Below, in pieces: positions 848 to 47,820 of a stretch of 64,000 nucleotides of DNA. The stretch's first letter is position 1. Each line of letters starts with the position of its first letter. Source of the stretch: a virus (lineage: Duplodnaviria; Heunggongvirae; Uroviricota; Caudoviricetes); the IMG/VR virus record IMGVR_UViG_3300024246_000004, positions 27,446 to 91,445 of that record; one strand, 5' to 3'. A model generated the notes under the pieces. That model was not told the origin of the DNA. It was given only the letters and a program-made list of their open reading frames with translations, and made no database searches. Position numbers and translations under genes: made by a program.

Positions 848-1092
848 ACTGTTCCCGGCAGCCAACATCGTACCGTTCTCCAAAGTGTGGTCGCTGCCAG
901 CGTGTGGTGTGTCCTTCCGGCGGCCAGCCGTGCGGCGAACCCCATTGTATCTGCACCGTCGGTTGCGATACGTTAGTCTCGCTCGGGTAGCCGGTTCCCA
1001 CACGGCTCCGGCTACCTGGGCAGACCAACTCGCCAAAGGGAACTCGAAACCCTGGAGTTCAACGCGAGGATCTGGTAAAGTACCAAATACGA

Positions 1093-1166
1093 CGCGGGGT
1101 AGAGCAGCTCGGTAGCTCGTTGGGCTCATAACCCAAAAGTCGCAGGTTCAAATCCTGCCCCCGCTA
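1093..1166 (+). tRNA. tRNA-Met(CAT), initiator-like
   Basis: Cloverleaf with anticodon loop CTCATAA; GGG/CCC pairs closing the anticodon stem; unpaired 1:72 (C.U); T-arm GCAGG-TTCAAAT-CCTGC. Confidence 0.7.
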
Positions 1167-1215
1167 CTAACCGTCAGGTTCATAATCTGTCGGTGCGATC
1201 GAATACCTTGACCGC

Positions 1216-1566
1216 ATGCCGTACAAAGATCCAGAGGCCCGTAACGCCTATGCGCGAGCCTGGTACGCGAAGAATCAAGAAACGCATGCAGAGCTCGTGC
1301 GCCGTAACCGGGCGCGAGTAAAGGCTGAGGTGACGGAGTACCTCGGGAAGGTTAAGTCACATCCCTGCACAGATTGTGGCGGAACGTTCGACGCAGAGGT
1401 CATGGATTTCGATCATGTTTCGGGCGTGAAGTCGTTCAACATCAGCTCCGCGAAACAAGTTGGATACAGCCTGAGTCGCGTAAAAAAAGAAGTGGCGAAG
1501 TGCGAGCTAGTGTGCTCGAATTGTCATCGTCTACGCACGAAAGCCCGTAGAACGGCTACCGAATAG
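1216..1566 (+). CDS. HNH homing endonuclease
   Basis: HNH motif ...DFDHVSGVK...CELVCSNCH...; sits between tRNA genes. Confidence 0.75.
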   Translation: MPYKDPEARNAYARAWYAKNQETHAELVRRNRARVKAEVTEYLGKVKSHPCTDCGGTFDAEVMDFDHVSGVKSFNISSAKQVGYSLSRVKKEVAKCELVCSNCHRLRTKARRTATE

Positions 1567-1572
1567 CCTAAT

Positions 1573-1645
1573 TCCCCGTTGGAGTAACTGGCAACGTCAC
1601 CGCGCTCTGGACGCGGAGTTCGAGGTTCGAATCCTCGGCGGGGAG
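1573..1645 (+). tRNA. tRNA-Gln(CTG) (D-arm weak)
   Basis: Acceptor TCCCCGT/GCGGGGA, anticodon arm CCGCG-CTCTGGA-CGCGG, T-arm CGAGG-TTCGAAT-CCTCG. Confidence 0.5.
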
Positions 1646-1746
1646 CGAGTGCAGGGGCAAACGCCTGCCAGCGTGCGTCTCGGGTTCGGAGTAAGGATGG
1701 CAGTCCCCTCCGGATCAGGTGGGCGCCTCAATCAAAGCCCACCACA

Positions 1747-1821
1747 TGGCCCGGTATCCCAACGGAAGTAGGAGCTCGGCTCAGACCCGAGTAATGTGTG
1801 GGTTCGAATCCCACTCGGGCT
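1747..1821 (+). tRNA. Atypical tRNA with anticodon CAG (Leu-type anticodon, short variable arm, A73)
   Basis: Acceptor GGCCCGG/TCGGGCT, conserved D-region TATCCCAACGGAAGTAGGA, anticodon loop CTCAGAC, T-arm GTGGG-TTCGAAT-CCCAC. Confidence 0.5.
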
Positions 1822-1822
1822 A

Positions 1823-1907
1823 CGCGGTTGTGCTGGAATGGGAGACAGGCTGGCTTGAGGTGCCAGTGTCCCGCAAGGGGCGTGGGGGTTCGACTCCCCT
1901 CAACCGC
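1823..1907 (+). tRNA. tRNA-Leu(GAG), long variable arm
   Basis: Acceptor GCGGTTG/CAACCGC, anticodon loop TTGAGGT, variable-arm hairpin GTCCC-GCAA-GGGGC, T-loop TTCGACT. Confidence 0.75.
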
Positions 1908-1982
1908 ACTCCACGGCTAGATTCAGAACGAAACCCAGACACCACGCGCCGTGGCCACTGTCCGCCAACGAAAGGGGAGGTA

Positions 1983-2156
1983 ATGGCTAGGGAACATAAG
2001 GCCGACCTGACCGCCATCAAGGGCGCGCTTCAGGCGAACATCAACATCAAGCTCGCTGAAGCGGAGCTGGACGAGCGCAACGACAACCCCGTCGAGGCCA
2101 GGAACACTCGGCGTATCGCCGCCGAGTGGCAGAAGGTCCACGACGGCACCACCTGA
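1983..2156 (+). CDS. Small hypothetical protein (57 aa)
   Basis: Strong SD AAAGGGGAGG 6 nt before the ATG; the upstream part of the 145-aa track ORF overlaps tRNA genes and is discounted. Confidence 0.5.
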   Translation: MAREHKADLTAIKGALQANINIKLAEAELDERNDNPVEARNTRRIAAEWQKVHDGTT

Positions 2157-2209
2157 TCGGCTCGGCGGCCACATACAGCACGAAACCCAGATACGTGCGC
2201 CGCTGTCCG

Positions 2210-2282
2210 CCCGCATAGTCCAACCGGCAGAGGCACCCGATTTAAGTCCGGGGAGTTGTGCGTTCGAATCGCACTGCGGGCA
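2210..2282 (+). tRNA. Atypical tRNA with anticodon TAA (Leu-type, short variable arm, A73)
   Basis: Acceptor GCCCGCA/TGCGGGC perfect; D-region TAGTCCAACCGGCAGAGG; anticodon loop TTTAAGT closed by an A.C mismatch; T-arm GTGCG-TTCGAAT-CGCAC. Confidence 0.45.
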
Positions 2283-2283
2283 C

Positions 2284-2356
2284 GCCCAGGTATCCCAAGG
2301 GAAGAGGAAGCGGCTTCAAGTACCGCTAGTTGTGGGTTCGAATCCCACTCTGGGCA
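2284..2356 (+). tRNA. Atypical tRNA with anticodon CAA (Leu-type, short variable arm, A73)
   Basis: Acceptor GCCCAGG/TCTGGGC; D-region TATCCCAAGGGAAGAGGA; anticodon loop TTCAAGT closed by a C.A mismatch; T-arm identical to the 1747 element. Confidence 0.5.
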
Positions 2357-2357
2357 C

Positions 2358-2430
2358 GGCCGTGTAGCTCAGCTGGTAGAGCATCCCGCTCATAACGGGA
2401 AGGTCGCAGGATCAAGACCTGCCACGGCTA
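2358..2430 (+). tRNA. tRNA-Met(CAT) elongator-type (or Ile-lysidine)
   Basis: GGCCGTG-TA-GCTC-AGCTGGTAG-AGC; anticodon loop CTCATAA; unusual T-loop ATCAAGA. Confidence 0.65.
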
Positions 2431-2436
2431 CGGTGC

Positions 2437-2480
2437 GACAGCTAGGCTTCCCCCGGGCCCCACGCCCGCCTAGCTGTCGT
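2437..2480 (+). other. Stable hairpin (11-bp stem CGACAGCTAGG / CCTAGCTGTCG)
   Basis: Perfect inverted repeat seen directly in the sequence. Confidence 0.5.
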
Positions 2481-2550
2481 GCTACGCTAACACGGCACCG
2501 CCTGGCGGCCGAGAGTAGCTCGAAACCCGTATAAGTCCCGCCGCCAGTAC

Positions 2551-2575
2551 CGGCTTGTAGCTCAATGGCTCAACG
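2551..2575 (+). pseudogene. tRNA 5-prime-half fragment (acceptor plus D-arm, GGCTTGTAGCTCAATGG...)
   Basis: Matches the 5-prime half of tRNA-Thr-like genes in this array; no anticodon arm, T-arm or acceptor 3-prime strand follows; the HNH gene starts 19 nt downstream. Confidence 0.45.
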
Positions 2576-2593
2576 TTGTGGTAGGGTTGAGCT

Positions 2594-3178
2594 GTGAAGC
2601 AGAGCTGGAATGACGATGATCTGCGCCATGCAGTAGCTCAAGCAACTTCATGGCGTCAGGTCTCTCGTATTCTCGGCCTACAAGGGACCAATCCAACTCG
2701 GCTGCGCACAAGAGCTCAAGTTGCTGGCGTAGATTTCTCGCACTTCAAGGGGAGCAGATCCTTTTCCGATGAAGAGCTTCGGGATGCGGTCGCTGAGTCA
2801 GCAACTCCTTTCGAGGTGCAAAAGCGCCTAGGGAGGGGTGCGTGGCATTCAATTCAGAGGCGCATAAGGGAGTTGGGGCTAGAGTTTGGCCTGCCAGCAC
2901 CTGACTCGCGTCGAAAAAGTCTCAACCTAGTACTGACCCCCAACTCGACCTACCAGTCTGACAGGACACGCAAACGCCTCGTCGAAGCCGGACTAAAGGA
3001 GGAGAGGTGCGAGGGATGCGGCCTGGCGGAATGGCTAAATGGCCCGATACCCCTTCATCTCGACCACATTAATGGCGTGCACAATGATAACCGCCTAGAG
3101 AACCTTCGTATCCTCTGCCCCAACTGCCACTCCCTCACTCCCACGTGGGGAAACCGCAAGCGACCTTTGGCCTCCTAG
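2594..3178 (+). CDS. HNH homing endonuclease (paralog of 5554..6066)
   Basis: C-terminal CEGCG...HLDHINGVHNDNRLENLRILCPNCHSLT; about 50% identical to the 5554 ORF over its length. Confidence 0.75.
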   Translation: MKQSWNDDDLRHAVAQATSWRQVSRILGLQGTNPTRLRTRAQVAGVDFSHFKGSRSFSDEELRDAVAESATPFEVQKRLGRGAWHSIQRRIRELGLEFGLPAPDSRRKSLNLVLTPNSTYQSDRTRKRLVEAGLKEERCEGCGLAEWLNGPIPLHLDHINGVHNDNRLENLRILCPNCHSLTPTWGNRKRPLAS

Positions 3179-3240
3179 CTCAGTGGTAGAGCGCTTCTTT
3201 CACACAGAAGAGGTCCCGAGTCCGATTCTCGGGGAGGCTA
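3169..3240 (+). tRNA. tRNA-Val(CAC)
   Basis: Acceptor GGCCTCC/GGAGGCT; anticodon arm CTTCT-TTCACAC-AGAAG; T-arm CCGAG-TCCGATT-CTCGG; its 5-prime end overlaps the HNH stop codon TAG. Confidence 0.7.
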
Positions 3241-3348
3241 CGCGTCCGCCAACCCTAGAGAACTGCTGCAATGTGGCAGGGCACGGGAGAAGCAGCTCCC
3301 ACGCCCAGGCGGATGCCCCTGGGGCACCTAGGAAGGCCGCTGGGGTTA

Positions 3349-3423
3349 CAGCCTATGGCGCAGCTTGGCAGCGCGCCTGGTCGGGGACCAGGAGGTCGCC
3401 AGTTCAAATCTGGCTAGGCTGAC
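3349..3423 (+). tRNA. tRNA-Pro(GGG)
   Basis: C1-G72 acceptor CAGCCTA/TAGGCTG with A73 (bacterial Pro signature); D-arm GCGC-AGCTTGGCA-GCGC; anticodon loop TCGGGGA; T-arm GCCAG-TTCAAAT-CTGGC. Confidence 0.65.
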
Positions 3424-3476
3424 GTTGTGGTGGTCACGTAGCGTACGAGACCTATACCAAGCACACCGCCACGCAC

Positions 3477-3548
3477 CGCCTCGTAGCTCAGCGGCAGAGC
3501 GCCCGCCCGACACGCGGGAGGCCGGACGATCAACACGTCCCGAGGCGA
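3477..3548 (+). tRNA. tRNA-Val(GAC)
   Basis: CGCCTCG-TA-GCTC-AGCGGCA-GAGC; anticodon arm CCCGC-CCGACAC-GCGGG; unusual T-loop ATCAACA. Confidence 0.6.
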
Positions 3549-3583
3549 CGATCATCGGCAGGATGCGACAGGAGACGGACACC

Positions 3584-3760
3584 ATGGATACGGCAGCAGC
3601 CGAAACGAAGACCGCGCTTTCCACGGGGATCCTGGATGCGCGCGCCGTGCCGCTCGGGCGCCTTGCCCAGGAGGGCAACGGCTCGGAGGGAATGTCCCGC
3701 GTGCTGCCCGGCTTCGACGCCAAGAGGGTCGCGGTCGCGTCGTTCCAGTCCTCGGTCTAG
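3584..3760 (+). CDS. FxsA-like small protein with FXSXX-COOH C-terminus (...ASFQSSV)
   Basis: SD AGGAGA 7 nt upstream; C-terminal F-Q-S-S-V; paralogous to the next ORF. Confidence 0.55.
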   Translation: MDTAAAETKTALSTGILDARAVPLGRLAQEGNGSEGMSRVLPGFDAKRVAVASFQSSV

Positions 3761-3792
3761 CGGTCGCGATCCTCGACAGGAAGCAGTGGGAG

Positions 3793-3960
3793 ATGGACAG
3801 CACGGACGTGCTAGTGTCTGAGGTTCCCGACCTCAGGATGATGAGCCTCGCCGATCTTGCGCGGCTGCATTCGGGGAGGGCTCTGCAGAAGGTCGTCGCG
3901 GAGGCCCTGGAGCCCTCCGCCCGGCAGGTCTCCGTGGCGGCGTTCAACTCGTCCATCTAG
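3793..3960 (+). CDS. FxsA-like small protein with FXSXX-COOH C-terminus (...AAFNSSI)
   Basis: 55 aa; leader-like segment LPDLRMMSLADLARL...ALQKVVAEALE followed by AAFNSSI-COOH, the hallmark of the actinobacterial FXSXX-COOH (FxsA) family. Confidence 0.6.
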   Translation: MDSTDVLVSEVPDLRMMSLADLARLHSGRALQKVVAEALEPSARQVSVAAFNSSI

Positions 3961-3966
3961 TTTCAC

Positions 3967-4040
3967 GCGCCCGTAGCTCAGCGGATAGAGCGCCGCCGTC
4001 CTAAGGCGGGCCGTCGCTGGTTCGAATCCAGCCGGGCGCA
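3967..4040 (+). tRNA. tRNA-Arg(CCT)
   Basis: GCGCCCG-TA-GCTC-AGCGGATAG-AGC; anticodon loop GTCCTAA; T-arm GCTGG-TTCGAAT-CCAGC. Confidence 0.8.
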
Positions 4041-4159
4041 CCGTCTCTGGCCATTGTGGATGCGAAAACCTTGCGGTACCCGCCGGGGGCGTGATACGTT
4101 AATCGAGTCGGCAGCCGAAAAGGGTGCGGAAACCCGGATCTCATCGCCGCCGACGCACG

Positions 4160-4345
4160 ACCGATCGGATCCGCTCCAAGGTTGGACGTCTTCCTGTCTC
4201 GGCCCTTGGCGACCGACCGGCGTACCACAAGCACCACCCGGCGATCGTGGCTCGAACTCGAAGTGAGTCCCGAGTCGCCGGTAGCACGGATCGGCGGCTT
4301 CAAGGTTGGGTTTCTGGACTTCTTAGCCCTTGGCCGTCGATCATA
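4160..4345 (+). repeat. Two ~60-nt direct repeats (about 4160-4215 and 4285-4345) sharing GATCGG...CAAGGTTGG...GCCCTTGGC
   Basis: Seen by eye; each copy contains the CCAAGG/CCTTGG inverted pair; no cloverleaf could be folded. Confidence 0.4.
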
Positions 4346-4417
4346 GGTGGGTAGCTCAACTGGTAGAGCGCAGGTCTCCAAAACCTGTCGTTGGGGGTTC
4401 AAGTCCCTCCCCACCTG
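4345..4417 (+). tRNA. tRNA-Trp(CCA)
   Basis: AGGTGGG-TA-GCTC-AACTGGTAG-AGC; anticodon loop CTCCAAA; T-loop TTCAAGT. Confidence 0.8.
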
Positions 4418-4419
4418 CG

Positions 4420-4491
4420 GTGAGTATGGCCGAGCGGCTTAGGCACCGGTTTGTGGAACCGGGCAGACGGGTTCGACCCCCGTTACTCACA
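4420..4491 (+). tRNA. tRNA-His(GTG)
   Basis: Perfect acceptor GTGAGTA/TACTCAC; anticodon arm CCGGT-TTGTGGA-ACCGG; T-arm ACGGG-TTCGACC-CCCGT; a G at position -1. Confidence 0.65.
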
Positions 4492-4631
4492 CGTTCCGTA
4501 GCGTCAGCCTGGTGAGCGGCTACGGAGTTCGGCGAGCGGCACTGACCAACGTCCCAGTACCCAGAAATGGGGATAGAAACAGTCGCCGAATACACGAACG
4601 ACCTGCCCCGACGCGCACGCGGGCAGGCGGT

Positions 4632-4661
4632 CCGCCGAGCCCGATCACTCGGCGGACCGGG
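4632..4661 (+). other. Strong hairpin (11-bp stem GGTCCGCCGAG / CTCGGCGGACC)
   Basis: Perfect inverted repeat in a non-coding spacer of the tRNA array. Confidence 0.45.
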
Positions 4662-4735
4662 AAGTCTGGCGACGGAGTTGGGCCAGACCGGGCGGGCTGA
4701 CGTGGGTTAGGCCTTCCACAAAGTAAACTGAATAC

Positions 4736-4808
4736 GCGCCTGTAGCTCAGCGGAGAGAGCGCCTCACTACGGATGAGGAGGCCGGGGGTTCGAATCCCTC
4801 CAGGCGCA
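4736..4808 (+). tRNA. tRNA-Arg(ACG)
   Basis: GCGCCTG-TA-GCTC-AGCGGAGAG-AGC; anticodon arm CCTCA-CTACGGA-TGAGG; T-loop TTCGAAT. Confidence 0.85.
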
Positions 4809-4809
4809 C

Positions 4810-5545
4810 GAGCGATCGCCGTAGCTCAAAGGCCCGAGAGGACGCCTTATCGGGAGAGCCCCGCTGTACCCCATTAAGGGTGAACGACGGGAGATCCGGC
4901 CGAACCGGCGACGATCCTCCGGGTGTGCTGTACGCCCGGCCAAAAGAGGGACCATGGCCCTCGGCAGCGGCAAGGAGCGAAGGAAGCCTCATCGGGAGGT
5001 GTCTTGACGGCTGGTGATGTGAATGACGAGCCGTCACGTGGGCGAGGGAGCAGATCACACTGTAGCCCGAGCCCTGGAGGTTCGACCCCTCCCCTTTGCA
5101 CGGCAGGTGGCCGCCAGAACCCTTACCTGGCGGACGGAGAGGCCAACCCGGGACAGTGGTACGCGTAGCGGAATGCTCCCCGAGTAAGATCTCCGTACTC
5201 GTAGTAGCGGGCCCTGCGCTTTGACGGGTGGTCGGTTGAGGCAACCACACCGGAGCGTTTGGGGTCGCTCCCCCTCCGGAGATACTGGTTCGAATCCAGT
5301 CCCGTCAGCGCTCCGGCGATTGCAAGCGCCGGTGATGGACACGCGGGTGCGCACTCGTGTGGAATGGTGTACGTGGAGACGGTACGGATAGGGCCCCCTG
5401 AAGGGCCTGATTCCGGGACGGGCGGGTTCGAGTCCCGCAACACCGCGAACGACAGCCAAACAGGGCCCGGTATCCAACATGGGTGCGCTGTCGGTCATGG
5501 CGCCTTAGCTCAGTTGGAAGAGTCTGTCGGACCTGAGCTATATTG
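4810..5545 (+). ncRNA. Zone of tRNA-like elements and fragments that do not fold into standard cloverleaves
   Basis: Three canonical T-arm motifs (GGAGG-TTCGACC-CCTCC near 5085; ACTGG-TTCGAAT-CCAGT near 5295 with a perfect 7-bp acceptor TGACGGG/CCCGTCA spanning 5223-5313; GGCGGG-TTCGAGT-CCCGC near 5445), plus 5-prime fragments GGCCCGGTATCCAAC (5466) and GGCGCCTTAGCTCAGTTGGAAGAG (5499-5535). Confidence 0.35.
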
Positions 5546-5553
5546 TTTCCCGT

Positions 5554-6066
5554 ATGGCTCGATACAGCAAGAATCGGTGCAGATGGACGGATGAACAACT
5601 CAGGGAAGCGGTCGCCAGCAGTCAATCGATCCGCCAGGTCATCGGGATACTCGGCCTGTCGGTGACGGCGGCCGGGAACTGGGGTACGGTCAAAAAGCAT
5701 GTGAGTCGGCTCGGGCTGGACACCTCCCACTGGACGGGGCAATCCTGGGTGGGAACCCGCGAAAACCACCCGGCACGACTCCCTCTTGAACAGATATTGG
5801 TACCAGGTTCAACGTACAGAACTTCTGCGCTTCGAGACCGCCTCATCGGAGCTGGACTCAAAGAATGGCGATGCGAAAGGTGCTTGCGGATCGACTGGGA
5901 GGGGGATCGCATTCCCCTTGAGGTGGATCATGCGAATGGAGTGCCGGACGACCATAGGATCGAGAATCTGCGCTTGCTCTGCCCCAATTGCCATGCGTTA
6001 ACGCCGACATGGCGCGGGCGCAAGAACGCTAGATCATACCACGGCAACGTAGCTGAGAAGGATTAG
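5554..6066 (+). CDS. HNH homing endonuclease (paralog of 2594..3178)
   Basis: C-terminal CERCL...EVDHANGVPDDHRIENLRLLCPNCHALT; preceded directly by a tRNA 5-prime fragment. Confidence 0.75.
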   Translation: MARYSKNRCRWTDEQLREAVASSQSIRQVIGILGLSVTAAGNWGTVKKHVSRLGLDTSHWTGQSWVGTRENHPARLPLEQILVPGSTYRTSALRDRLIGAGLKEWRCERCLRIDWEGDRIPLEVDHANGVPDDHRIENLRLLCPNCHALTPTWRGRKNARSYHGNVAEKD

Positions 6067-6248
6067 CGAGGCTCTGAAAAAGCCTAGAGGCTGGATCGTT
6101 ACCAGTCGTTGCCACGCGGTACAAGCCTGCAAGAAGGCGAGTGCGCAGCTTCGTGTCATAGGCTGCCGAAGACCGATGGCCCTATCGGATGCCATGCTGG
6201 TCGGCTAAGCGAAGCCGCGTCCCCGGCTCGTACCCGGGGGCCGTACCT

Positions 6249-6339
6249 GGAGAGGTCGCCTAGTCCGGTCTATGGCGCCGACCTGCTAAGTCGGTGGGTT
6301 CCGCAAGGGGCCTCATGGGTTCGAATCCCATCCTCTCCG
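6249..6339 (+). tRNA. tRNA-Ser(GCT), long variable arm
   Basis: GGAGAGG/CCTCTCC; anticodon arm CCGAC-CTGCTAA-GTCGG; T-arm ATGGG-TTCGAAT-CCCAT. Confidence 0.8.
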
Positions 6340-6419
6340 CGCAAAACAGTTGGACAGCCCAGCGTGGATGAGATACGTTAGTTCTCGCAGGGGTTCGAGC
6401 CAGGGATAAGCTAGGCGGG

Positions 6420-6466
6420 CCTGTAAAGCCCTACCTTGGAGGTTCGAATCCTCCCGGGCCCACCAA
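6420..6466 (+). pseudogene. tRNA-like minihelix (acceptor GGGCCTG/CGGGCCC plus T-arm GGAGG-TTCGAAT-CCTCC) lacking D and anticodon arms
   Basis: Only 13 nt lie between the acceptor 5-prime strand and the T-arm. Confidence 0.35.
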
Positions 6467-6488
6467 ACCGAGCGAAAGGAGAGTACTG

Positions 6489-6671
6489 ATGGCCAGCAGA
6501 GAGACCAAGGAGCTCCTCGCGGCACTGGACCGGCACCGGGAGTACACGGCGGAGCAGGAACGGATCGCGCACGACAACCTGTTCCGCGTCACGGACCCCG
6601 TCGAGGGAGCCGTCTCGGTGAAGGACACCGGCAAGATCAAGAGGATCCTCAAGCGAACGCGGAACGGCTAG
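6489..6671 (+). CDS. Small hypothetical protein (60 aa)
   Basis: SD GAAAGGAGAG 7 nt upstream of the ATG. Confidence 0.55.
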   Translation: MASRETKELLAALDRHREYTAEQERIAHDNLFRVTDPVEGAVSVKDTGKIKRILKRTRNG

Positions 6672-6717
6672 CACTACCCGTAGTACGCTAATTGACAACT
6701 CCAGAGTGACGCGAAAT

Positions 6718-6788
6718 GCGGATGTAGCTCAATGGTAGAGCGCTACCTTGCCATGGTAGATACGCGAGTTCGATTCTCGTCATCCGCT
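6718..6788 (+). tRNA. tRNA-Gly(GCC)
   Basis: GCGGATG-TA-GCTC-AATGGTAG-AGC; anticodon loop TTGCCAT; U73. Confidence 0.85.
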
Positions 6789-6888
6789 CAACCCGGCGGC
6801 CAGTCTCAGCTCGAAACCCAGAGACCCAACGTCGCCGGACGAGGTGCCCAAGTACCCTCCGAGACTCAAACTCCTCGCGGCACCGCAT

Positions 6889-6963
6889 GTCCCCGTCGTC
6901 TAGCGGTTCCAGGACATCACCCTCTCAAGGTGAAAATCGCCGGTTCGAATCCGGTCGGGGATA
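6889..6963 (+). tRNA. tRNA-Glu(CTC)
   Basis: Glu-type D-arm GTCTAGCGGTTCCAGGAC; anticodon arm TCACC-CTCTCAA-GGTGA. Confidence 0.8.
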
Positions 6964-7017
6964 CTCTCCGGCAGCCAGAATGAGCAGGAAACCCAAGTAC
7001 AGTTCGCTGCCGGACAT

Positions 7018-7091
7018 GGCCCGTTCGTCTAGCGGCCGAGGATCCCACCCCTTCAAGGTGCGAGGCACGGGTTCGAATCCCGTACGGGCTA
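7018..7091 (+). tRNA. tRNA-Glu(TTC)
   Basis: Glu-type D-arm GTCTAGCGGCCGAGGAT; anticodon loop CCTTCAA; T-arm ACGGG-TTCGAAT-CCCGT. Confidence 0.75.
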
Positions 7092-7154
7092 CGGCGTCGC
7101 GGCCACGGCGACAATCGCGGTAGTGGGCGAGCAAGATGCCCGCACAGTGGCAGT

Positions 7155-7228
7155 GCTGTAGTGGCTCAATATGGCGGAGCGTCGCGCTTCCAACGCGAAG
7201 GTCGCAGGTTCGAACCCTGTCTACAGCG
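7155..7228 (+). tRNA. tRNA-Gly(TCC)
   Basis: GCTGTAG/CTACAGC; anticodon arm TCGCG-CTTCCAA-CGCGA. Confidence 0.8.
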
Positions 7229-7229
7229 C

Positions 7230-7301
7230 CGGAATGTGGGGTAATGGTCGCCCGCCTGCCTTGGGAGCAGGTCCACGCAGGTTCGATTCCTGTCATTCCG
7301 A
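7230..7301 (+). tRNA. tRNA-Pro(TGG)
   Basis: C1-G72 acceptor CGGAATG/CATTCCG with A73; anticodon arm CCTGC-CTTGGGA-GCAGG. Confidence 0.75.
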
Positions 7302-7416
7302 CGATCCAAGGGCAAGGATGAGAAGCGGGAACCCAAGGGTAGCGGACATGGTGAATGTATCTAGCCGAGCCGCTGAACTTTCCGTCGGCCAGATACGCCG
7401 GGGGAGCCGCAATCAA

Positions 7417-7490
<74 letters not shown>

Positions 7491-7500
7491 CGTACACTAT

Positions 7501-7573
7501 GCACCTGTGGCCGAGAGGCGAGGCGCTTCCCTGCAAAGGAAGAATGACCCCGGTTCAAATCCGGGCAGGTGCT
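7501..7573 (+). tRNA. tRNA-Cys(GCA)
   Basis: Perfect acceptor GCACCTG/CAGGTGC with U73; anticodon arm CTTCC-CTGCAAA-GGAAG. Confidence 0.8.
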
Positions 7574-7628
7574 CGATTCGGTGGCCATATACGGTACGAG
7601 ATCCACGCCAAGGCTCGCCACCGGACAC

Positions 7629-7699
7629 GCCCTTGTAGCTCAATGGCAGAGCACTCGTTTCGTAATCGAGGGACCGGCGTCCGATTCGTCGCAGGGGCT
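7629..7699 (+). tRNA. tRNA-Thr(CGT)
   Basis: GCCCTTG-TA-GCTC-AATGGCA-GAGC; anticodon loop TTCGTAA; T-loop TCCGATT. Confidence 0.65.
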
Positions 7700-7753
7700 C
7701 AGATCGGCAGCAATGTAGCTTTCGAAGACCATAACCGGCTCGCTGTCGGTCAT

Positions 7754-7826
7754 GGGGGTGTAGCTCAGGGGTTAGAGCGCTTCCCTGATAAGGAAGAGGT
7801 CGGAGGTTCAAATCCTCCCATCCCCA
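7754..7826 (+). tRNA. tRNA-Ile(GAT)
   Basis: GGGGGTG-TA-GCTC-AGGGGTTAG-AGC; anticodon arm CTTCC-CTGATAA-GGAAG. Confidence 0.85.
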
Positions 7827-7830
7827 CTTA

Positions 7831-7905
7831 GGGCCCGTAGCTCAGTCAGGTTAGAGCAGCTTCCTTTTAAGTAGCGGGTCGCAGGTTCGAATCCTGTCGG
7901 GCCCA
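7831..7905 (+). tRNA. tRNA-Lys(TTT)
   Basis: GGGCCCG/CGGGCCC; anticodon loop CTTTTAA; T-arm GCAGG-TTCGAAT-CCTGT. Confidence 0.75.
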
Positions 7906-7922
7906 CCCGCTAGACTCTTGCT

Positions 7923-8363
7923 GTGATCACCGGTAAGAGCTGTGGCAAGTGCGGTGAAGTGAAGAACCTTGAAGAATTCTCAAGGAACTCGCGTAGAAAA
8001 GATGGCCGCCAAACATGGTGCAAGAAATGTGCCCATGCACGCAGAAATGAATGGGCCAAAGAGAATCGCGATAAATGTCGGACTTACCGCCTCTACGACG
8101 CCCATGGAATCCGTATCGCCGACAAGCAGCGCATGTATGAAGAGCAAGGCGGCCTCTGTGCGGCCTGCCAGAAGAAGGAAGCTGTCGTAGTCGATCACGA
8201 CCATTCCTGCTGCCCCAACAACCGGGGCGGCTGTGGGAAGTGCGTGCGAGCGCTCCTTTGTAACCGCTGCAACCTCCTCGCGGGGTTCTTTGAGACCGAC
8301 CCGGAGGCTTGCGAGAGCGTCCAGGCGTATCTTTTGCGGTACAGTAAGACCAACCCTCCGTAA
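7923..8363 (+). CDS. Endonuclease VII-like (T4 gp49-type) nuclease
   Basis: N-terminal CGKCG Zn motif, central VVDHDHSCCP, then CNRCNLLAG: the signature of the Endonuclease_7 family. Confidence 0.7.
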   Translation: MITGKSCGKCGEVKNLEEFSRNSRRKDGRQTWCKKCAHARRNEWAKENRDKCRTYRLYDAHGIRIADKQRMYEEQGGLCAACQKKEAVVVDHDHSCCPNNRGGCGKCVRALLCNRCNLLAGFFETDPEACESVQAYLLRYSKTNPP

Positions 8364-8426
8364 CTCAGCGGCCAGAGTTGCGCCCTCTTAAGGCGAAGGT
8401 CGCCGGTTCGAATCCGGCCGGGGGGA
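8354..8426 (+). tRNA. tRNA-Lys(CTT)
   Basis: Acceptor CCCTCCG/CGGGGGG; D-arm ACTC-AGCGGCCA-GAGT; anticodon loop CTCTTAA; T-arm GCCGG-TTCGAAT-CCGGC; its 5-prime end overlaps the last codons of the endonuclease VII gene. Confidence 0.6.
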
Positions 8427-8529
8427 CGAGGCGTGCGGCACGCCGCGCGGAGATTAGGGCTAGCCCCCCAGGGGAGCCCCTCCAAAAAGCCAACTCCCTA
8501 TACTAGTTCGGGACGAGGCAGCCGCATAA

Positions 8530-8602
8530 GGGCCCGTAGCTCAGCTGGTAGAGCACTCGCCTCGCACGCGAGAGGTCCGGGGTTCGACTCCCCGCCGGTC
8601 CA
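8530..8602 (+). tRNA. tRNA-Ala(CGC)
   Basis: G3.U70 wobble in the acceptor (Ala identity element); anticodon arm CTCGC-CTCGCAC-GCGAG; T-loop TTCGACT. Confidence 0.75.
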
Positions 8603-8669
8603 CGATGCGTAGCGGCGCGCAACGGGCTAAGTAACCCGGAAGCCATGCTAGCCACTGGCAGCCGCGTAA

Positions 8670-8740
8670 GGGGTTGTAGCTCAACGGTGAGCACCTCGTT
8701 TGCATCGAGGCGGACGCGGGTTCGAATCCCGTCAACTCCA
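8670..8740 (+). tRNA. tRNA-Ala(TGC)
   Basis: G3.U70; anticodon arm CCTCG-TTTGCAT-CGAGG. Confidence 0.8.
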
Positions 8741-8876
8741 CTGGGCGGCATGCGGCATGCCGTGGGGAGCGCAGCTAGGAACTGCGCCGTCTGAATGAAG
8801 ACCACTCCCCGGAAGACGAAGGTAGGCAACCGCAAGGGTCCTAGCCTGAAGTGGGGAATCTGGAGTCAGCCGCATT

Positions 8877-8952
8877 GGGCCTATAGCTCAGCCCGGCAGA
8901 GCGCCCGCTCGGCAGGCGGGAGGTTTCGTCGGTTCGAATCCGACTAGGTCCA
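8877..8952 (+). tRNA. tRNA-Ala(GGC)
   Basis: G3.U70; anticodon arm CCCGC-TCGGCAG-GCGGG; T-arm GTCGG-TTCGAAT-CCGAC. Confidence 0.65.
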
Positions 8953-9160
8953 CTACCGCCGCGTGGTCGGCGGGGAGCGACGCATGTCGGAGATTGCGCG
9001 CTCGCAGGACAAGGCTTACCCGTGTTGGATTCCGACTAGGCACGGGAGGTAGCGTGTCCATCCGCACCGCCCCGCAACGGGCTGCCGGACCGGGTTGTGC
9101 CGGTTAGGCTGCAATACCGAGTGAGTCGCCCGGCACTCGTTAATCCCTACCGGCGAACCT

Positions 9161-9248
9161 GGAGAGGTCGGCCCCGCTGGCGGAGGCACTGTCCTGGAAT
9201 GGCAGCGGCCGTTGATTCGGTTCGTGGGTTCGATTCCCACTCTCTCCG
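9161..9248 (+). tRNA. tRNA-Ser(GGA), long variable arm
   Basis: GGAGAGG/TCTCTCC; anticodon arm CTGTC-CTGGAAT-GGCAG; T-loop TTCGATT. Confidence 0.7.
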
Positions 9249-9547
9249 CGAACTCGGCGACCAGTCTTGGAACGCAGCTCACTCTGCCTTCGTTGCCGAG
9301 TCTCACTGTCCGACAGCCAAGCGGTTCCGCGCACCATGTGCCGGGCGCTGTCGGGCTCCATGCGGGCCCTGGGGAGGTAACCTGACGGTCCACGGTGCAC
9401 CAGCGACCGTCAGCAGCTCCGTCCACTCGGAGCGCCCGCTCGATCGACAGCCATAGTGGCCTCGCACCCCGCGCTCCCTACGCTGTCGAGCTCAACCCGG
9501 TGGCCATAGCGAGAACCCTCCCACAGGACACTCCCGCCGCCGGTCGT

Positions 9548-9621
9548 GGTCCTGTAGAGCAGCTGGAGTGCTCGCCACCCTGTCAAGGTGGAGGTCGCGG
9601 GTTCAAGTCCCGTCAGGACCG
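9548..9621 (+). tRNA. tRNA-Asp(GTC)
   Basis: GGTCCTG/CAGGACC with G73; anticodon arm CCACC-CTGTCAA-GGTGG; T-loop TTCAAGT. Confidence 0.85.
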
Positions 9622-9625
9622 CTAA

Positions 9626-9698
9626 GGCGACGTAGCTCAGCGGATAGAGCGCTTCCCTCCGAAGGAAGAGGCCGTGGGTTCAAATCCCACCGTCGCCA
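9626..9698 (+). tRNA. tRNA-Arg(CCG)
   Basis: GGCGACG/CGTCGCC; anticodon arm CTTCC-CTCCGAA-GGAAG. Confidence 0.8.
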
Positions 9699-9699
9699 C

Positions 9700-9782
9700 G
9701 GAAGGTCCGACACTGGTGCGTCAAGCGTCTTCGAAAGGCGTGGCGGTGAAAGCCGTTAGCGGTTCGAGTCCGCTACCTTCCG
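9700..9782 (+). tRNA. tRNA-Ser(CGA), long variable arm
   Basis: GGAAGGT/ACCTTCC; anticodon loop TTCGAAA; T-arm AGCGG-TTCGAGT-CCGCT. Confidence 0.65.
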
Positions 9783-9834
9783 CTACCAGCAGCCGAGGTC
9801 AACGCGTATCCCAAAATCGTTCTGCTGCTGGTTT

Positions 9835-9918
9835 GGAGAGTTGCCGGAACGGTAACGGCGCCGCCTTGAAAGCGGACGGCAGGGAAACCTGGAGCAGGTT
9901 CGACCCCTGCACTCTCCG
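9835..9918 (+). tRNA. tRNA-Ser(TGA), long variable arm
   Basis: GGAGAGT/ACTCTCC; anticodon loop CTTGAAA; variable-arm hairpin CAGG-GAAA-CCTG; T-loop TTCGACC. Confidence 0.7.
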
Positions 9919-9923
9919 CGCGG

Positions 9924-9994
9924 TCCCCGCTAGTTCAATGGCAGAACGCTCGACTGTTAATCGAGAAGTACCTGGATCGATACCAGGGCGGGGA
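9924..9994 (+). tRNA. tRNA-Asn(GTT)
   Basis: TCCCCGC/GCGGGGA; anticodon arm CTCGA-CTGTTAA-TCGAG; unusual T-loop ATCGATA. Confidence 0.65.
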
Positions 9995-10012
9995 GCATGA
10001 AAGGGGGCGGTT

Positions 10013-10450
10013 GTGGCCCCCTCACATCTCAAGAAGATCGAGGAACTCGGCGCGGCGTGCCACCTGTGCGGCAAGACCGAGAAGCTCGTGCTCCAGGGCC
10101 GCGCTCCCGACGGCGCCCATGTGCATTGGAGTAAGCCGGGGAGCAAGTCTGCGGACGTCGCGTGGCGCGTGATCTGTTTGTTCTGCAAGAACGCTAGGCC
10201 GTCGGGGCCCGAGAAGCACAACTGGGCCGCTTACGTGCACGGTTGCCGGTGTGGTGTGTGCACGAAGGCGATGGCCGACTACGGCTACACACGGCAGCGG
10301 CACCTGAACGGTCCGCCTAAGCGGTACAGGCCGCGCCGGTTGTACGACGATACGGTTCCCCCACCTGAGGAGCGCCCGTTCTGGGGTGTTCCTTCGGACG
10401 TTATCCCGGTTCCGGCAACGGGATGGTGGACGGACCTCGGCAGGGAATGA
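10013..10450 (+). CDS. Cys/His-rich Zn-finger protein, possibly HNH-like
   Basis: GTG start preceded by AAAGGGGGCGG; CHLCGK...CLFCKNARP...HGCRCGVC motifs. Confidence 0.45.
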   Translation: MAPSHLKKIEELGAACHLCGKTEKLVLQGRAPDGAHVHWSKPGSKSADVAWRVICLFCKNARPSGPEKHNWAAYVHGCRCGVCTKAMADYGYTRQRHLNGPPKRYRPRRLYDDTVPPPEERPFWGVPSDVIPVPATGWWTDLGRE

Positions 10451-10849: not shown

Positions 10850-11325
10850 TGCCGCAGGACGAGCAGGAGCGCCGCAAACTGGAGCTGGGCAACGCCGCCC
10901 TCCAGGCCCTCGCCGCCCTTCAACCGGTGCGCGACGGCTCGGCCCACTGGCTCGTCGCGGTGCGCTGCCTGAGCGAACTGGGGGACGCGGCGGCGCGCTT
11001 CATGGCCGACTACTACGACGCCATGACCGCCGAGGAGATGGACGTGGAGCTCACCGAGAGCGGGTCGGTACAGATCGAGGCGCCGCGCGGCGAGCCGAAG
11101 ATCGGTTTCTGGTGCGGCTTCACGCGGGCGGAGATGAGAGAGATCAAGGAGTGGGACAACAAGGCCTATACCGGCGACGTCGTGCATGACGCGGCGCTGC
11201 GATGGATCCGCGAGGCTGAGGGTATGCGAATTGCGCTGGCCAAACTCAAAGGTTCCGCGCCGACGCGCGCGGAGATCCTCACGGGCTTGATGCTGGACGA
11301 GACCCCTCCAGGTGCGGTGGAGTAA
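10846..11325 (+). CDS. Hypothetical protein (160 aa)
   Basis: ATGATG start coupled to the upstream stop; codon usage matches its neighbours. Confidence 0.5.
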   Translation: MMPQDEQERRKLELGNAALQALAALQPVRDGSAHWLVAVRCLSELGDAAARFMADYYDAMTAEEMDVELTESGSVQIEAPRGEPKIGFWCGFTRAEMREIKEWDNKAYTGDVVHDAALRWIREAEGMRIALAKLKGSAPTRAEILTGLMLDETPPGAVE

Positions 11326-21348: not shown

Positions 21349-21744
21349 TTAGATGTAGCGGGCGTGGGACGGGCGGCGGGCGGGCATCCGCAGGCGCGGC
21401 ATGCTCGGGCGGCTCGCCACCGGCAGGCGGCGGTACCAGCGCACGCCCAGGAACAGGTACACGGGCACGGAGAAGTAGAACGCGGGGAGGATCAGGAACA
21501 GCAGCGAGACTTTCAGCCGCTTCGCTGCGACCGCGTGGCGCTGATTGAACGTCGGGCGCGGCGGGGCCACGGCGAACAGTCCGCGCCCGCCGACCGCGTT
21601 CACCTGGTACCCGGCGGAGGCGAGCAGCATGTGCGCCTGCCCGCTGACCACCGTGTTGGGGAACGCGAGCACGTATCCGCCGTTGGGGGACAGGCTCGCC
21701 TGGTGTGCGATGCCGAGTTCCGCGAGGATCCTCATCTGGGCCAT
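21349..21744 (-). CDS. Membrane protein
   Basis: SD GGAAGGCAACGATC-ATG; hydrophobic segments. Confidence 0.5.
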   Translation of the reverse strand: MAQMRILAELGIAHQASLSPNGGYVLAFPNTVVSGQAHMLLASAGYQVNAVGGRGLFAVAPPRPTFNQRHAVAAKRLKVSLLFLILPAFYFSVPVYLFLGVRWYRRLPVASRPSMPRLRMPARRPSHARYI

Positions 21745-22795: not shown

Positions 22796-23427
22796 CCCTG
22801 CCGAATCTCCTCATCCGTGGCGTAGTGCGCGGGGCCCATGCACAGCGCAAGCGACATGCCGTGCTCGCACTGCGGATACAGCCGCTTGACCAGCCGCCCG
22901 CAGGCGTCCGGAACCGGCTCCGATTCCACCTCGGCGAAGTAGCGCCCCGGGTGGGCATCCATGTACGCGAGCACCTGGTCTTGCGTGGCGAACCGGACAC
23001 GGTAGGACATCCACGGGCCGGAGCCGGAACCCCGAACGTCAAGGACGATCGGCGTAGCGGCATCCGAGGCGTCCAGCGCAGCGCGCTCGGCGGCGAGCCG
23101 GACGTCAAGCAAGCGGAAGTACTCGGCCCACAGGTGAGCGGCCGTGTCTTCCAAGATCTCGTCGTGCGGGAAAGCGTTCGCCGCGTCCTGCGCGTCCTGC
23201 GCTGCCACGTAAGCCGCGTGAGACGCATCGTAAGCCGCGACGTGCGCCGTGCGCAGTTCGGCCAGCACGGCGGCTTTGCCGGGCGTGTAAAGCCGGGAGA
23301 GAGCGTCGGTGCCGTTGCGCTCGGCCGTGCGGCGGCAGTTCAAGCACACGGGCACGTTGTAGTCGTACGCAGGCTGTCCGCAGTGCTTGCACGGGCCGCC
23401 GTAGCGGTGCGCGATGTCGCTTGCCAT
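22789..23427 (-). CDS. Cys-rich hypothetical protein (212 aa)
   Basis: SD GAAAGGCTGATC-ATG; CKHCGQ...CLNCRR motifs. Confidence 0.55.
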   Translation of the reverse strand: MASDIAHRYGGPCKHCGQPAYDYNVPVCLNCRRTAERNGTDALSRLYTPGKAAVLAELRTAHVAAYDASHAAYVAAQDAQDAANAFPHDEILEDTAAHLWAEYFRLLDVRLAAERAALDASDAATPIVLDVRGSGSGPWMSYRVRFATQDQVLAYMDAHPGRYFAEVESEPVPDACGRLVKRLYPQCEHGMSLALCMGPAHYATDEEIRQGW

Positions 23428-23451
23428 GATCAGCCTTTCGGTCGGAAGCGG

Positions 23452-23492: not shown

Positions 23493-23512
23493 GTGCAGGT
23501 GGAAGGGAAGAA

Positions 23513-47814: not shown

Positions 47815-47820
47815 CGTCGC

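Follow-up and report, generated by a model that had tools for sequence, protein, structure and literature searches.

How a phage comes to carry a dense island of transfer RNA (tRNA) genes, broken up by nuclease genes and by a stretch that looks like tRNA fragments, and whether that stretch holds anything of its own, are the questions raised by a 64,000-nucleotide (nt) piece of viral DNA (positions 27,446 to 91,445 of IMG/VR record IMGVR_UViG_3300024246_000004), which is analysed here at its full length and referred to as the window. The island (positions 1093-9996, plus strand) comprises 37 co-oriented tRNA genes, four nuclease genes, small open reading frames (ORFs) and a structured RNA module that we call X. 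Terminase, portal and head protein genes in the same window identify a tailed phage, with a GC content of 62-68%. The region is very probably the tRNA island of a large, high-GC actinobacterial tailed phage, which has been colonised repeatedly by homing-type nucleases and carries X as a conserved module.

Composition of the tRNA island

At default settings, ARAGORN places 36 tRNA genes on the plus strand between 1093 and 9996, 35 of which reach the gathering score of the Rfam tRNA model RF00005 (E-values of 1e-5 to 1e-15). Rfam gives a 37th at 6391-6462, with 31.5 bits. The 37 genes are contained in 8.9 kilobases (kb) and serve all 20 amino acids, with an initiator-like tRNA-Met in addition. 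The cluster is far beyond chance, because the remaining 54 kb of the window yields no Rfam match at all. Two minus-strand tRNAs proposed by ARAGORN outside the island (21554-21655 and 31849-31921) lie inside coding regions and are unsupported by Rfam. An array of 35 plus-strand genes had been described in a first-pass annotation of the sequence; the array stands, with the count raised to 37. The annotation had missed tRNA-Phe(GAA) (6043-6115) and tRNA-Tyr(GTA) (6391-6465), which are both present, and had listed five serine genes where there are four.

The three atypical tRNAs with leucine anticodons reported in that annotation are real. They are 74-76 nt long, with anticodons CAG, TAA and CAA, have A73, lack a long variable arm and are conserved in the four relatives introduced below; together with a normal long-arm gene (GAG) they make up the four leucine genes. 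One of them reads UUA, the rare bldA-dependent codon of Streptomyces. Among the 37 genes, CCA is encoded only in tRNA-Tyr. The identity of this gene is agreed upon by megablast and by alignment to the tRNA-Tyr of cluster BE Streptomyces phages: it shares an identical 41-nt core with the tRNA-Tyr annotated in Streptomyces phage LukeCage (72 nt), and the stems differ by compensatory changes. It is of the short-arm type, unlike the long-arm tRNA-Tyr of contigs L001 and L045, and looks like the horizontal replacement of one tRNA gene, as judged from these comparisons.

No close relative was found among GenBank phages, where the DNA matches are to single tRNAs only. Syntenic relatives were reached via the ParB-like gene immediately upstream of the array. 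The first, L001, is a 119-kb IMG/VR contig with a ParB that is 76% identical and with 37 tRNAs ordered as in the window; L050, L051 and L052 are further syntenic relatives from public assemblies, and the tRNA order is kept across all four. The other relatives used were IMG/VR viral contigs and cultured phages. Because tRNA-Tyr is shared with Streptomyces phages and a ParB homolog is present in a Streptosporangiaceae assembly, the sequence points to a probable actinobacterial, Streptomyces-like host.

Nuclease genes and truncated tRNAs

All four nuclease genes are located on the tRNA strand, and their earlier assignment as three HNH genes and one endonuclease VII-like gene agrees with Pfam and PHROG matches (Table 1). 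The HNH genes at 2594-3178 and 5554-6066 are paralogs (44% identical), while the one at 1216-1566 belongs to a different family and stops 6 nt short of tRNA-Gln. The stop codons of the other three nuclease genes lie within the following tRNA, so that the genes overlap Val-CAC, Phe and Lys-CTT by 10, 24 and 10 nt, respectively. Two of these overlaps had been seen before: tRNA-Val(CAC) begins at 3169, with the HNH stop at 3178, and tRNA-Lys(CTT) begins at 8354, with the endonuclease VII stop at 8363. In the third case, the first 24 nt of tRNA-Phe double as the carboxy-terminus and stop codon of HNH 5554. Nuclease stops are also found inside the next tRNA at 10910-10919 and 12083-12121 of L052 and at 1920-1929 of the locus from Gordonia phage GodonK (L048). 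With the stop codon inside a tRNA, cleavage of the precursor by RNase P would strip it from the nuclease message, which may keep nuclease expression low. A group I intron or a split tRNA around the HNH genes was considered and rejected: the downstream tRNAs are complete without splicing, and no Rfam intron match was obtained.

The GC content at third codon positions (GC3) of the nuclease genes is 0.58-0.66, against 0.80-0.95 for other phage genes, a foreign codon composition. Homologs of HNH 5554 occur in 137 phage records and are located in the tRNA arrays of E. coli phage SP22 and of GodonK, where they again share the strand of the tRNAs and their 3' ends abut or overlap the following tRNA.

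When the relatives are compared, HNH 2594, HNH 5554 and the endonuclease VII-like gene are absent from the corresponding spacers in L001, L050, L051 and L052. The spacer between the second tRNA-Met and Val-CAC, which houses HNH 2594 in the window, measures 102-155 nt and contains no ORF in any of the four. HNH 5554 is missing between tRNA-like element c (see below) and Phe in L052 and L001, and Lys-TTT and Lys-CTT, between which the endonuclease VII-like gene is located in the window, are 3 nt apart in L001. L001 and L050 share HNH 1216 with the window, and L052 lacks it. The relatives have nuclease genes elsewhere: in L001 an HNH gene lies between two Thr genes, and in L052 one HNH gene overlaps Pro-CGG, an unrelated one overlaps Lys-CTT and a PDDEXK gene abuts Arg-CCG. 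The L052 nuclease upstream of Lys-CTT is not homologous to the endonuclease VII-like protein of the window.

The tRNA 5' fragments that had been noticed in front of the two HNH paralogs are genuine 5' parts, at 2551-2569 and 5499-5523, and alignment to intact tRNAs identifies their donors as tRNA-Val(CAC) and tRNA-Phe of nuclease-free relatives. Residues 2490-2569 of the window align to the upstream flank and the first 18 nt of tRNA-Val(CAC) in L050, L001 and L052, the match stopping in the D-loop; for residues 5436-5523, the counterpart in L052 and L001 runs from the end of element c through the spacer into tRNA-Phe, of which it covers the first 24 nt. The HNH 5554 cassette, which ends in a divergent tRNA-Phe, begins after that point. 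The intact Val-CAC that follows HNH 2594 has a different acceptor stem and an unusual T-loop compared to the relatives. These alignments support a history in which each of the two HNH cassettes would have truncated a resident tRNA in or after the D-arm and supplied a replacement. The low identity (64-67%) of the Val, Phe and Lys tRNAs to their L001 orthologs was dropped as proof of import, as tRNAs of the window and L001 are generally 64-85% identical.

Free-standing homing-type nuclease genes have very probably colonised the island repeatedly, each ending at or inside the 5' end of the next tRNA. The two paralogous HNH cassettes appear to have replaced the resident Val-CAC and Phe from the D-arm onward, each bringing in a divergent copy of the tRNA that it displaced, with 18-24 nt of the old 5' ends staying behind as vestiges, and, by analogy with established homing biology, nuclease-free alleles would be cleaved and repaired by copying. 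Repeated nuclease invasion would account for the vestiges, the replacement tRNAs and the differences between relatives alike; the first-pass proposal of repeated endonuclease-mediated insertion or rearrangement is supported by the four syntenic relatives and by the vestige alignments.

Some phages use endonuclease VII and HNH proteins for housekeeping, and the presence of HNH 1216 in both L001 and L050 would suit fixed, functional phage genes, such as an endonuclease VII resolvase for packaging or HNH terminase cofactors, rather than mobile ones. That every available relative lacks three of the four at the corresponding sites and has unrelated nucleases elsewhere in its array, that GC3 is far from the phage norm and that two insertions are marked by tRNA vestiges makes fixed genes very improbable. 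The nucleases are best described as presumptive selfish passengers, and the locus appears to match the established model of free-standing homing endonucleases in tRNA clusters.

A conserved RNA directly after tRNA genes

The zone at 4810-5545 had been singled out for three T-arm motifs, which are real and fall within tRNA-like elements a, b and c, respectively (Table 1), and for fragments that do not fold canonically. Fragments are indeed present, but the zone is more than debris, as it consists of X and of tRNA-like elements with compensatory changes in their acceptor and T stems. Comparison with L001 reveals conserved blocks in the order tRNA or tRNA-like element, X, then more tRNA-like elements. 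The three elements keep acceptor and T stems and have no anticodon loop; in elements b and c, these stems covary between relatives. At the position of element a, other contigs have a canonical tRNA, while element b is the ortholog of tRNA-Pro(TGG) of L045. An Rfam search of 4805-5560 returned no family at E-values up to 1 and, up to 10, only two chance-level matches on element b; no terminator-like site was found on the plus strand inside the zone.

X is about 120 nt long and has a closing stem and three hairpins or arms. The closing stem P1 has 5 base pairs (bp). It is followed by hairpin P2, of 7 bp, with the invariant loop AACCCUUAC (AA(C/U)CCUUAC across the family), and by P3, in which 7 bp are followed by the invariant internal loops GAGGCCAAC and GCAAGAUC and then by a variable apical arm, P4. 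The last hairpin, P5, has 5 bp and reads CGUAGUAGCG in the window and CGUAGUA(G)GCG across the family. Copies of X were gathered by pattern scans and via ParB-linked relatives, and five of them were used to build covariance model R1. Full-length R1 matches are present in 13 contigs, the window and 12 others; R1 also matches Streptomyces phages Satis and Frankenweenie and Gordonia phage Boopy, in whose records the stretch is unannotated or called a hypothetical protein.

In the 13-sequence alignment, 94.7% of cells are paired and 15 of the 28 pairs show changes on both sides (57 cells), counts that are somewhat inflated because the alignment was fitted to the structure of the model. None of 500 shuffles reached these values, and sliding the pairing partners leaves at most 49.5% paired. 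The G-U pairs fit the plus strand only. Stems P2 and P3 are almost wholly rewritten between subgroups, with the loops untouched.

In every copy, a tRNA or tRNA-like element comes directly before X, and its discriminator base is position 1 of the model. The tRNA upstream is Arg-ACG, Ala-TGC, Ile-GAT (three times), Tyr (twice), Leu-GAG, Pro-TGG, Thr-CGT, Arg-CCG or Val, and in L045, L058, L060, L066 and Boopy another tRNA begins 0-5 nt after X. The family is absent from Rfam 15, and nothing on it was found in the literature searched. Its motifs were not found in GTDB genomes, and a metagenome scan gave the L044 contig only. With X of the window as query, blastn against GenBank phages gave no match, while a more central family member (from L063) did find copies. 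X is thus a conserved, covariation-supported and previously undescribed structured RNA in a known kind of locus.

Several other identifications were discarded. X is not a coding sequence, its indels not being multiples of three and no frame being conserved on either strand, nor the leader of a particular downstream gene, as downstream genes are unrelated or are tRNAs. The 19-mer GTACTCGTAGTAGCGGGCC also matches 28 low-GC gut-phage contigs (L014-L043), but within coding sequence and by chance. The window contains 11 occurrences of the complement of the X loop (4.4 expected), without an interpretable pattern, and the genes around X in L046 give no functional clue.

The zone could instead be decaying debris, that is, pseudo-tRNAs and spacers left by tandem duplication and nuclease-induced rearrangement and without a function of their own. 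It does contain obvious fragments (the 5'-half-like piece at 4813-4833 and a 10-nt duplicate of X), its length and content vary, with an extra tRNA-like element of 136-185 nt in L001 and L052 that the window lacks, and the folding energies of the elements are no better than those of shuffles. But decay would not preserve the four stems of X through compensatory changes with invariant loops, nor place X in phages of different genera behind different tRNAs, and the covarying stems of elements b and c argue in the same direction. We consider debris improbable and a conserved RNA module the better description of the zone.

Repeats are present nonetheless in and near the zone. A second copy of the first 10 nt of X (ACGGCTGGTG) lies at 5007-5016, some 95 nt before X itself. 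Positions 4845-4860 and 4988-5003 form a direct repeat, GCCT(T/C)ATCGGGAG; both may be signs of past duplication. A leader, GACGTGGGTTAGGCC..CTGAATA (4690-4735), precedes tRNA-Arg(ACG) in the window, and the same leader precedes tRNA-like elements in L001 (at about 13340 and 13690) and L052 (at about 7795), which suggests that the elements of the relatives may have arisen by duplication of a leader-plus-tRNA unit. The motif GGGTTAGGCC..CTGAATA was rejected as an array promoter: the window has a single copy, and a search for sigma-70-like sites gave none.

Proposed role of X

The tRNA genes of the island would give rise to polycistronic precursors, which host RNase P, 3'-end nucleases and CCA-adding enzyme would mature. 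Because X begins right after a discriminator base and often has a tRNA directly after it, its ends would be cut by the enzymes that mature its neighbours, so that X would be excised as a stable small RNA of about 120 nt. Where no real tRNA adjoins X, the tRNA-like elements could serve as processing handles. The invariant loops point to a specific partner, and the most likely role for X is that of a released RNA acting in trans.

A cis-acting element of the tRNA operon (a stabiliser of 3' ends, a processing or termination signal or a folding insulator) is less likely, and on balance unlikely. Such a role would suit L059, L061, L062, L063 and L065, where X follows the last tRNA of the cluster (a solitary tRNA in L063) and a short tail containing U residues separates it from a protein gene. 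This tail is not a canonical terminator, though, and the downstream genes are unrelated. X also occurs inside arrays (L058, L060, L066, Boopy, L045 and the window), where a tRNA or tRNA-like element follows it directly.

The exact start of X at a tRNA discriminator would also be expected if X were a self-cleaving ribozyme: by cutting at its 5' edge, it would mature the upstream tRNA at the 3' end, as a counterpart of the theta ribozymes with a different fold. Theta ribozymes are located no more than 5 nt from the 3' ends of tRNAs, and processing of 3' trailers has been proposed as their role (PMC10879173). Unpaired nucleotides of X are invariant while its stems drift, as in catalytic cores, and the phosphoesterase and RNA ligases of the phage (see below) could handle cyclic-phosphate ends. 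Yet there are no matches to Rfam ribozyme families, the hepatitis delta virus (HDV) family included, even at E-values up to 10, and the stem order of X (closing stem, then three hairpins or arms) cannot be mapped by eye onto the nested double pseudoknot of HDV. No other tRNA of the array needs more than the 3'-processing enzymes of the host, and what precedes X in the window, L001 and L046 is a tRNA-like structure that does not decode and has little reason to be matured. Taken together, we regard a ribozyme as quite improbable. There is a similarly small chance that X represents a new catalytic or processing class of RNA on phage tRNA 3' ends, with a fold unrelated to theta ribozymes, or a decoy that binds the tRNA elbow; the CCAAC and AACCC of its invariant loops are complementary to D-loop GUUGG and T-arm GGGUU.

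Transfer-messenger RNA (tmRNA) is encoded by cluster BE Streptomyces phages, and a one-piece or permuted tmRNA was considered for the zone, where relaxed ARAGORN runs propose permuted tmRNAs, with tag GRQNPYLADGEANPGQWYA. Element a has a G3:U70 pair, the upstream gene in L045 is a tRNA-Ala, and the invariant GCC AAC would encode Ala-Asn, as at the start of many tags. Against this, neither default ARAGORN nor Rfam (RF00023, permuted families) detects a tmRNA in the window; indels of 32 nt and 1 nt between relatives break the frame, so that the "tags" differ in length and ending; the "tag" region is base-paired, with covariation; and the upstream tRNA in other contigs is Arg, Ile, Tyr, Leu, Pro or Thr. 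On the features tested (model match, frame conservation and pairing of the "tag") a tmRNA was excluded, and we give it hardly any credence.

Several points weigh against a nuclease-colonised island with a released X, beside the inflated pair counts mentioned above. The co-transcription and excision of X are deduced from its position. In the window, element a has a weak acceptor pairing, which the minimum-energy fold does not contain. Activity and target sites of the nucleases are predicted. The "imported" Val and Phe copies are not outliers by identity, because of the general divergence between tRNAs of the window and L001, and the case for their import would be carried by the vestiges and by the changed acceptor stems and T-loops.

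Comparison with known systems

The tRNA region of phage T4 resembles the island in being a co-transcribed tRNA cluster with a free-standing homing endonuclease that targets the tRNA genes of relatives without it, flanks being carried along (PMC2330249). This endonuclease, the product of segB, recognises a tRNA T-arm motif and drives the inheritance of its region (PMC2330249). The T4 region also encodes stable RNA species I and II, small RNAs of unknown function, to which X can be likened by its placement in a tRNA cluster. Unlike T4, the island has 37 tRNAs instead of 8 and four nucleases of HNH and endonuclease VII type instead of one of GIY-YIG type, and vestigial tRNA 5' ends and replacement tRNAs are visible in it.

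Six tRNAs of the window have non-canonical T-loops: Met2, Val-GAC, Phe and Asn have ATC.. (A54), while Val-CAC and Thr-CGT have TCCGATT (C55). Since SegB recognises a canonical T-arm motif, altered T-loops could, by analogy, protect tRNA genes against nucleases, but the change in Met2 is also found in L001.

The large arrays of actinophages (clusters BE and BF and Gordonia phage GodonK) share with the island the phylum of the host, the scale and the near-complete coverage of isotypes (PMC5764925). Cluster BE phages have 43-48 tRNAs and a tmRNA (PMC5764925), while the island has no tmRNA and contains the X module; there is no DNA similarity beyond single tRNAs, and BE2 has a GC content of about 49%, against 62-65% here. 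The HNH genes in the arrays of SP22 and GodonK are homologs of HNH 5554 with 37-42% identity, the same strand and the same abutment; they are annotated only, not characterised, and their neighbouring tRNAs differ from those of the island.

Theta (HDV-like) ribozymes share with X the location of a structured RNA directly at a phage tRNA 3' end (PMC10879173). They are found in gut phages of Bacteroidota and Bacillota, and X folds as a four-stem junction, not as a double pseudoknot, and has no Rfam match. Another small RNA is E. coli 3'ETS-leuZ, a short, unstructured sponge RNA that is released from a bacterial tRNA precursor by tRNA-processing enzymes; compared to it, X is a conserved, phage-specific RNA with four stems.

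YrlA, which acts with Ro60 (Rsr), offers a likeness as a tRNA-mimicking non-coding RNA linked to RNA-repair genes. L056, a distant phage contig with a related ParB, encodes Ro60 (TROVE), Rnl1, RlaP and PNKP at 3494-6099, and an adjacent 900-nt gap contains a full-length YrlA-like RNA (42 bits, below the gathering score) and tRNA-like pieces. A link of the island to Ro60 and Y RNA was rejected: no TROVE gene is present among the large ORFs of the window that were scanned, and the YrlA model RF02553 matches neither X nor elements a-c in the zone. Weak YrlA matches at 2327-2383 and 9593-9650 straddle directly abutting tRNAs (the 3' half of one and the 5' half of the next) and are artefacts of the permuted tRNA-like architecture of the model.

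RNA-repair genes and the decoding set

A cluster of genes of RNA-repair type on the minus strand (46390-54231) adjoins the portal gene. It contains two RNA ligases, a Thg1-like enzyme and a metallophosphoesterase (Table 1), and also includes an SPFH/Band 7 protein. The array would be the phage's own, nearly complete decoding set, backed by the RNA ligase, Thg1-like and phosphoesterase genes. Phage tRNAs and tRNA repair are currently viewed as countering depletion or cleavage of host tRNAs (PMC10264068); the array and the repair genes would fit this view of translation being sustained while host tRNAs are depleted or cut.

The discriminator of tRNA-His is A73, as in eukaryotes, compared to C73 in bacteria, and the same is true in L001. 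Because the phage also encodes a Thg1-like enzyme, this suggests that G-1 may be added to tRNA-His post-transcriptionally by the phage enzyme.

Other genes of the window

Two small ORFs of the array, both on the plus strand, resemble precursors of FxSxx-COOH cyclophanes, which are ribosomally synthesised and post-translationally modified peptides (RiPPs). The one at 3566-3760 ends in FQSSV and matches profile NF040585 with an E-value of 2e-4, below threshold; the one at 3793-3960 ends in FNSSI, has a GC3 of 0.88 and matches TIGR04268 with 18.6 bits (cut-off 28). The profiles are covered at full length in both cases. Array ORFs of the relatives end in FNSSI (L001, 14280-14428) and FQASL (L052, 6050-6427); the L001 ORF matches no RiPP precursor profile at E-values up to 1.

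The gene that follows the last tRNA (10013-10450) is conserved (L001 19564-20166), with a common carboxy-terminal motif, ..GWW(T/N)DLGR.., and neither copy matched a family in profile searches. The L001 copy keeps an HNH-like CxxC...CxxCH pattern that looks degenerate in the window. The match to the terminase large subunit is confined to the ORF at 23958-25379, from about residue 17 on; the overlapping upstream ORF at 22825-23961 may be the amino-terminal part, the gene being split or frameshifted.

Table 1. Positions in the window of the tRNA genes, nuclease genes, X, tRNA-like elements and RNA-repair-type genes.
Feature	Position	Strand	Evidence and remarks
tRNA-Met(CAT), initiator-like	1093-1167	+	ARAGORN, Rfam; C1/U72 mismatch, GGG/CCC in anticodon stem
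HNH gene 1, 116 amino acids	1216-1566	+	phrog_3106, 8e-29; GC3 0.60
tRNA-Gln(CTG)	1573-1646	+	ARAGORN, Rfam
Short tRNA, Leu anticodon CAG, 76 nt, A73	1748-1823	+	ARAGORN, Rfam (45.7 bits)
tRNA-Leu(GAG), normal long-arm type	1824-1909	+	ARAGORN, Rfam
Short tRNA, Leu anticodon TAA, 75 nt	2209-2283	+	ARAGORN, Rfam
Short tRNA, Leu anticodon CAA, 74 nt	2284-2357	+	ARAGORN, Rfam
tRNA-Met(CAT), second copy (Met2), elongator or Ile2-type	2358-2431	+	ARAGORN, Rfam
Vestige of resident tRNA-Val(CAC)	2551-2569	+	5' acceptor strand and start of D-arm, truncated in D-loop
HNH gene 2, 194 amino acids	2594-3178	+	phrog_10822, 3e-42; GC3 0.58; window-specific insertion
tRNA-Val(CAC), putative replacement copy carried with HNH gene 2	3169-3241	+	ARAGORN, Rfam; different acceptor stem, T-loop TCCGATT
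tRNA-Pro(GGG)	3349-3423	+	ARAGORN, Rfam
tRNA-Val(GAC)	3477-3549	+	ARAGORN, Rfam
tRNA-Arg(CCT)	3967-4042	+	ARAGORN, Rfam
tRNA-Trp(CCA)	4345-4418	+	ARAGORN, Rfam
tRNA-His(GTG), discriminator A73	4420-4492	+	ARAGORN, Rfam
tRNA-Arg(ACG)	4736-4809	+	ARAGORN, Rfam
tRNA 5'-half-like fragment GCGATCGCCGTAGCTCAAAGG	4813-4833	+	Read from sequence
tRNA-like element a	5042-5100	+	T-arm 5076-5092, weak acceptor 5042-5048/5093-5099, discriminator A at 5100
X RNA, about 120 nt, four stems	5101-5221	+	Covariance model R1; window 5100-5223 scores 139 bits
tRNA-like element b	5222-5308	+	Acceptor 5222-5228/5301-5307, D-arm, T-arm 5284-5300, 18-nt loop replacing anticodon loop
Conserved hairpin, loop ATTGCAAG	5313-5332	+	Sequence comparison
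tRNA-like element c	5366-5444	+	Acceptor GGUGU/ACACC, T-arm 5422-5438, 6-nt loop at place of anticodon loop
Vestige of resident tRNA-Phe	5499-5523	+	5' acceptor strand and D-arm
HNH gene 3, 170 amino acids	5554-6066	+	phrog_10822, 6e-39; GC3 0.65; window-specific insertion
tRNA-Phe(GAA), putative replacement copy	6043-6115	+	ARAGORN, Rfam (48.7 bits); D-loop and T-loop (ATCGTTA) atypical
tRNA-Ser(GCT)	6249-6340	+	ARAGORN, Rfam
tRNA-Tyr(GTA), short-arm type, encoded CCA	6391-6465	+	Rfam, relaxed ARAGORN, megablast, alignment
tRNA-Gly(GCC)	6718-6789	+	ARAGORN, Rfam
tRNA-Glu(CTC)	6889-6964	+	ARAGORN, Rfam
tRNA-Glu(TTC)	7018-7092	+	ARAGORN, Rfam
tRNA-Gly(TCC)	7155-7230	+	ARAGORN, Rfam
tRNA-Pro(TGG)	7230-7302	+	ARAGORN, Rfam
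tRNA-Pro(CGG)	7417-7491	+	ARAGORN, Rfam
tRNA-Cys(GCA)	7501-7574	+	ARAGORN, Rfam
tRNA-Thr(CGT)	7629-7700	+	ARAGORN, Rfam
tRNA-Ile(GAT)	7754-7827	+	ARAGORN, Rfam
tRNA-Lys(TTT)	7831-7907	+	ARAGORN, Rfam
Endonuclease VII-like gene, 146 amino acids	7923-8363	+	Endonuclease_7 PF02945, 7e-15; GC3 0.66; between two Lys tRNAs
tRNA-Lys(CTT)	8354-8427	+	ARAGORN, Rfam
tRNA-Ala(CGC)	8530-8603	+	ARAGORN, Rfam
tRNA-Ala(TGC)	8670-8741	+	ARAGORN, Rfam
tRNA-Ala(GGC)	8877-8953	+	ARAGORN, Rfam
tRNA-Ser(GGA)	9161-9249	+	ARAGORN; Rfam 29.8 bits, borderline
tRNA-Asp(GTC)	9548-9622	+	ARAGORN, Rfam
tRNA-Arg(CCG)	9626-9699	+	ARAGORN, Rfam
tRNA-Ser(CGA)	9700-9783	+	ARAGORN; best Rfam clan member tRNA-Sec, 36 bits, below its threshold
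tRNA-Ser(TGA)	9835-9919	+	ARAGORN, Rfam
tRNA-Asn(GTT)	9924-9996	+	ARAGORN, Rfam
Rnl1-type RNA ligase	46390-47553	-	PF09511, 1e-14
Thg1-like tRNA-His guanylyltransferase	49599-50576	-	PF04446, 6e-23
Second RNA ligase	52263-53390	-	PF09414, 9e-18
Metallophosphoesterase, possibly an end-healing enzyme	53401-54231	-	Slightly below Pfam cut-off

Significance

Large tRNA arrays of actinophages (PMC5764925) and homing nucleases in phage tRNA clusters were already known, and the island is a well-resolved new example, in which vestigial 5' ends beside nuclease-linked replacement tRNAs offer an unusually clear view of how selfish nucleases may reshape phage tRNA sets. X is the more useful result, being conserved, supported by covariation, absent from Rfam and present in cultured phages of Streptomyces and Gordonia. 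Because it is always located directly after a tRNA, the tRNA arrays of actinobacterial phages appear to carry at least one extra, dedicated non-coding RNA, and its presence in cultured phages makes its function directly testable in tractable host-phage pairs.

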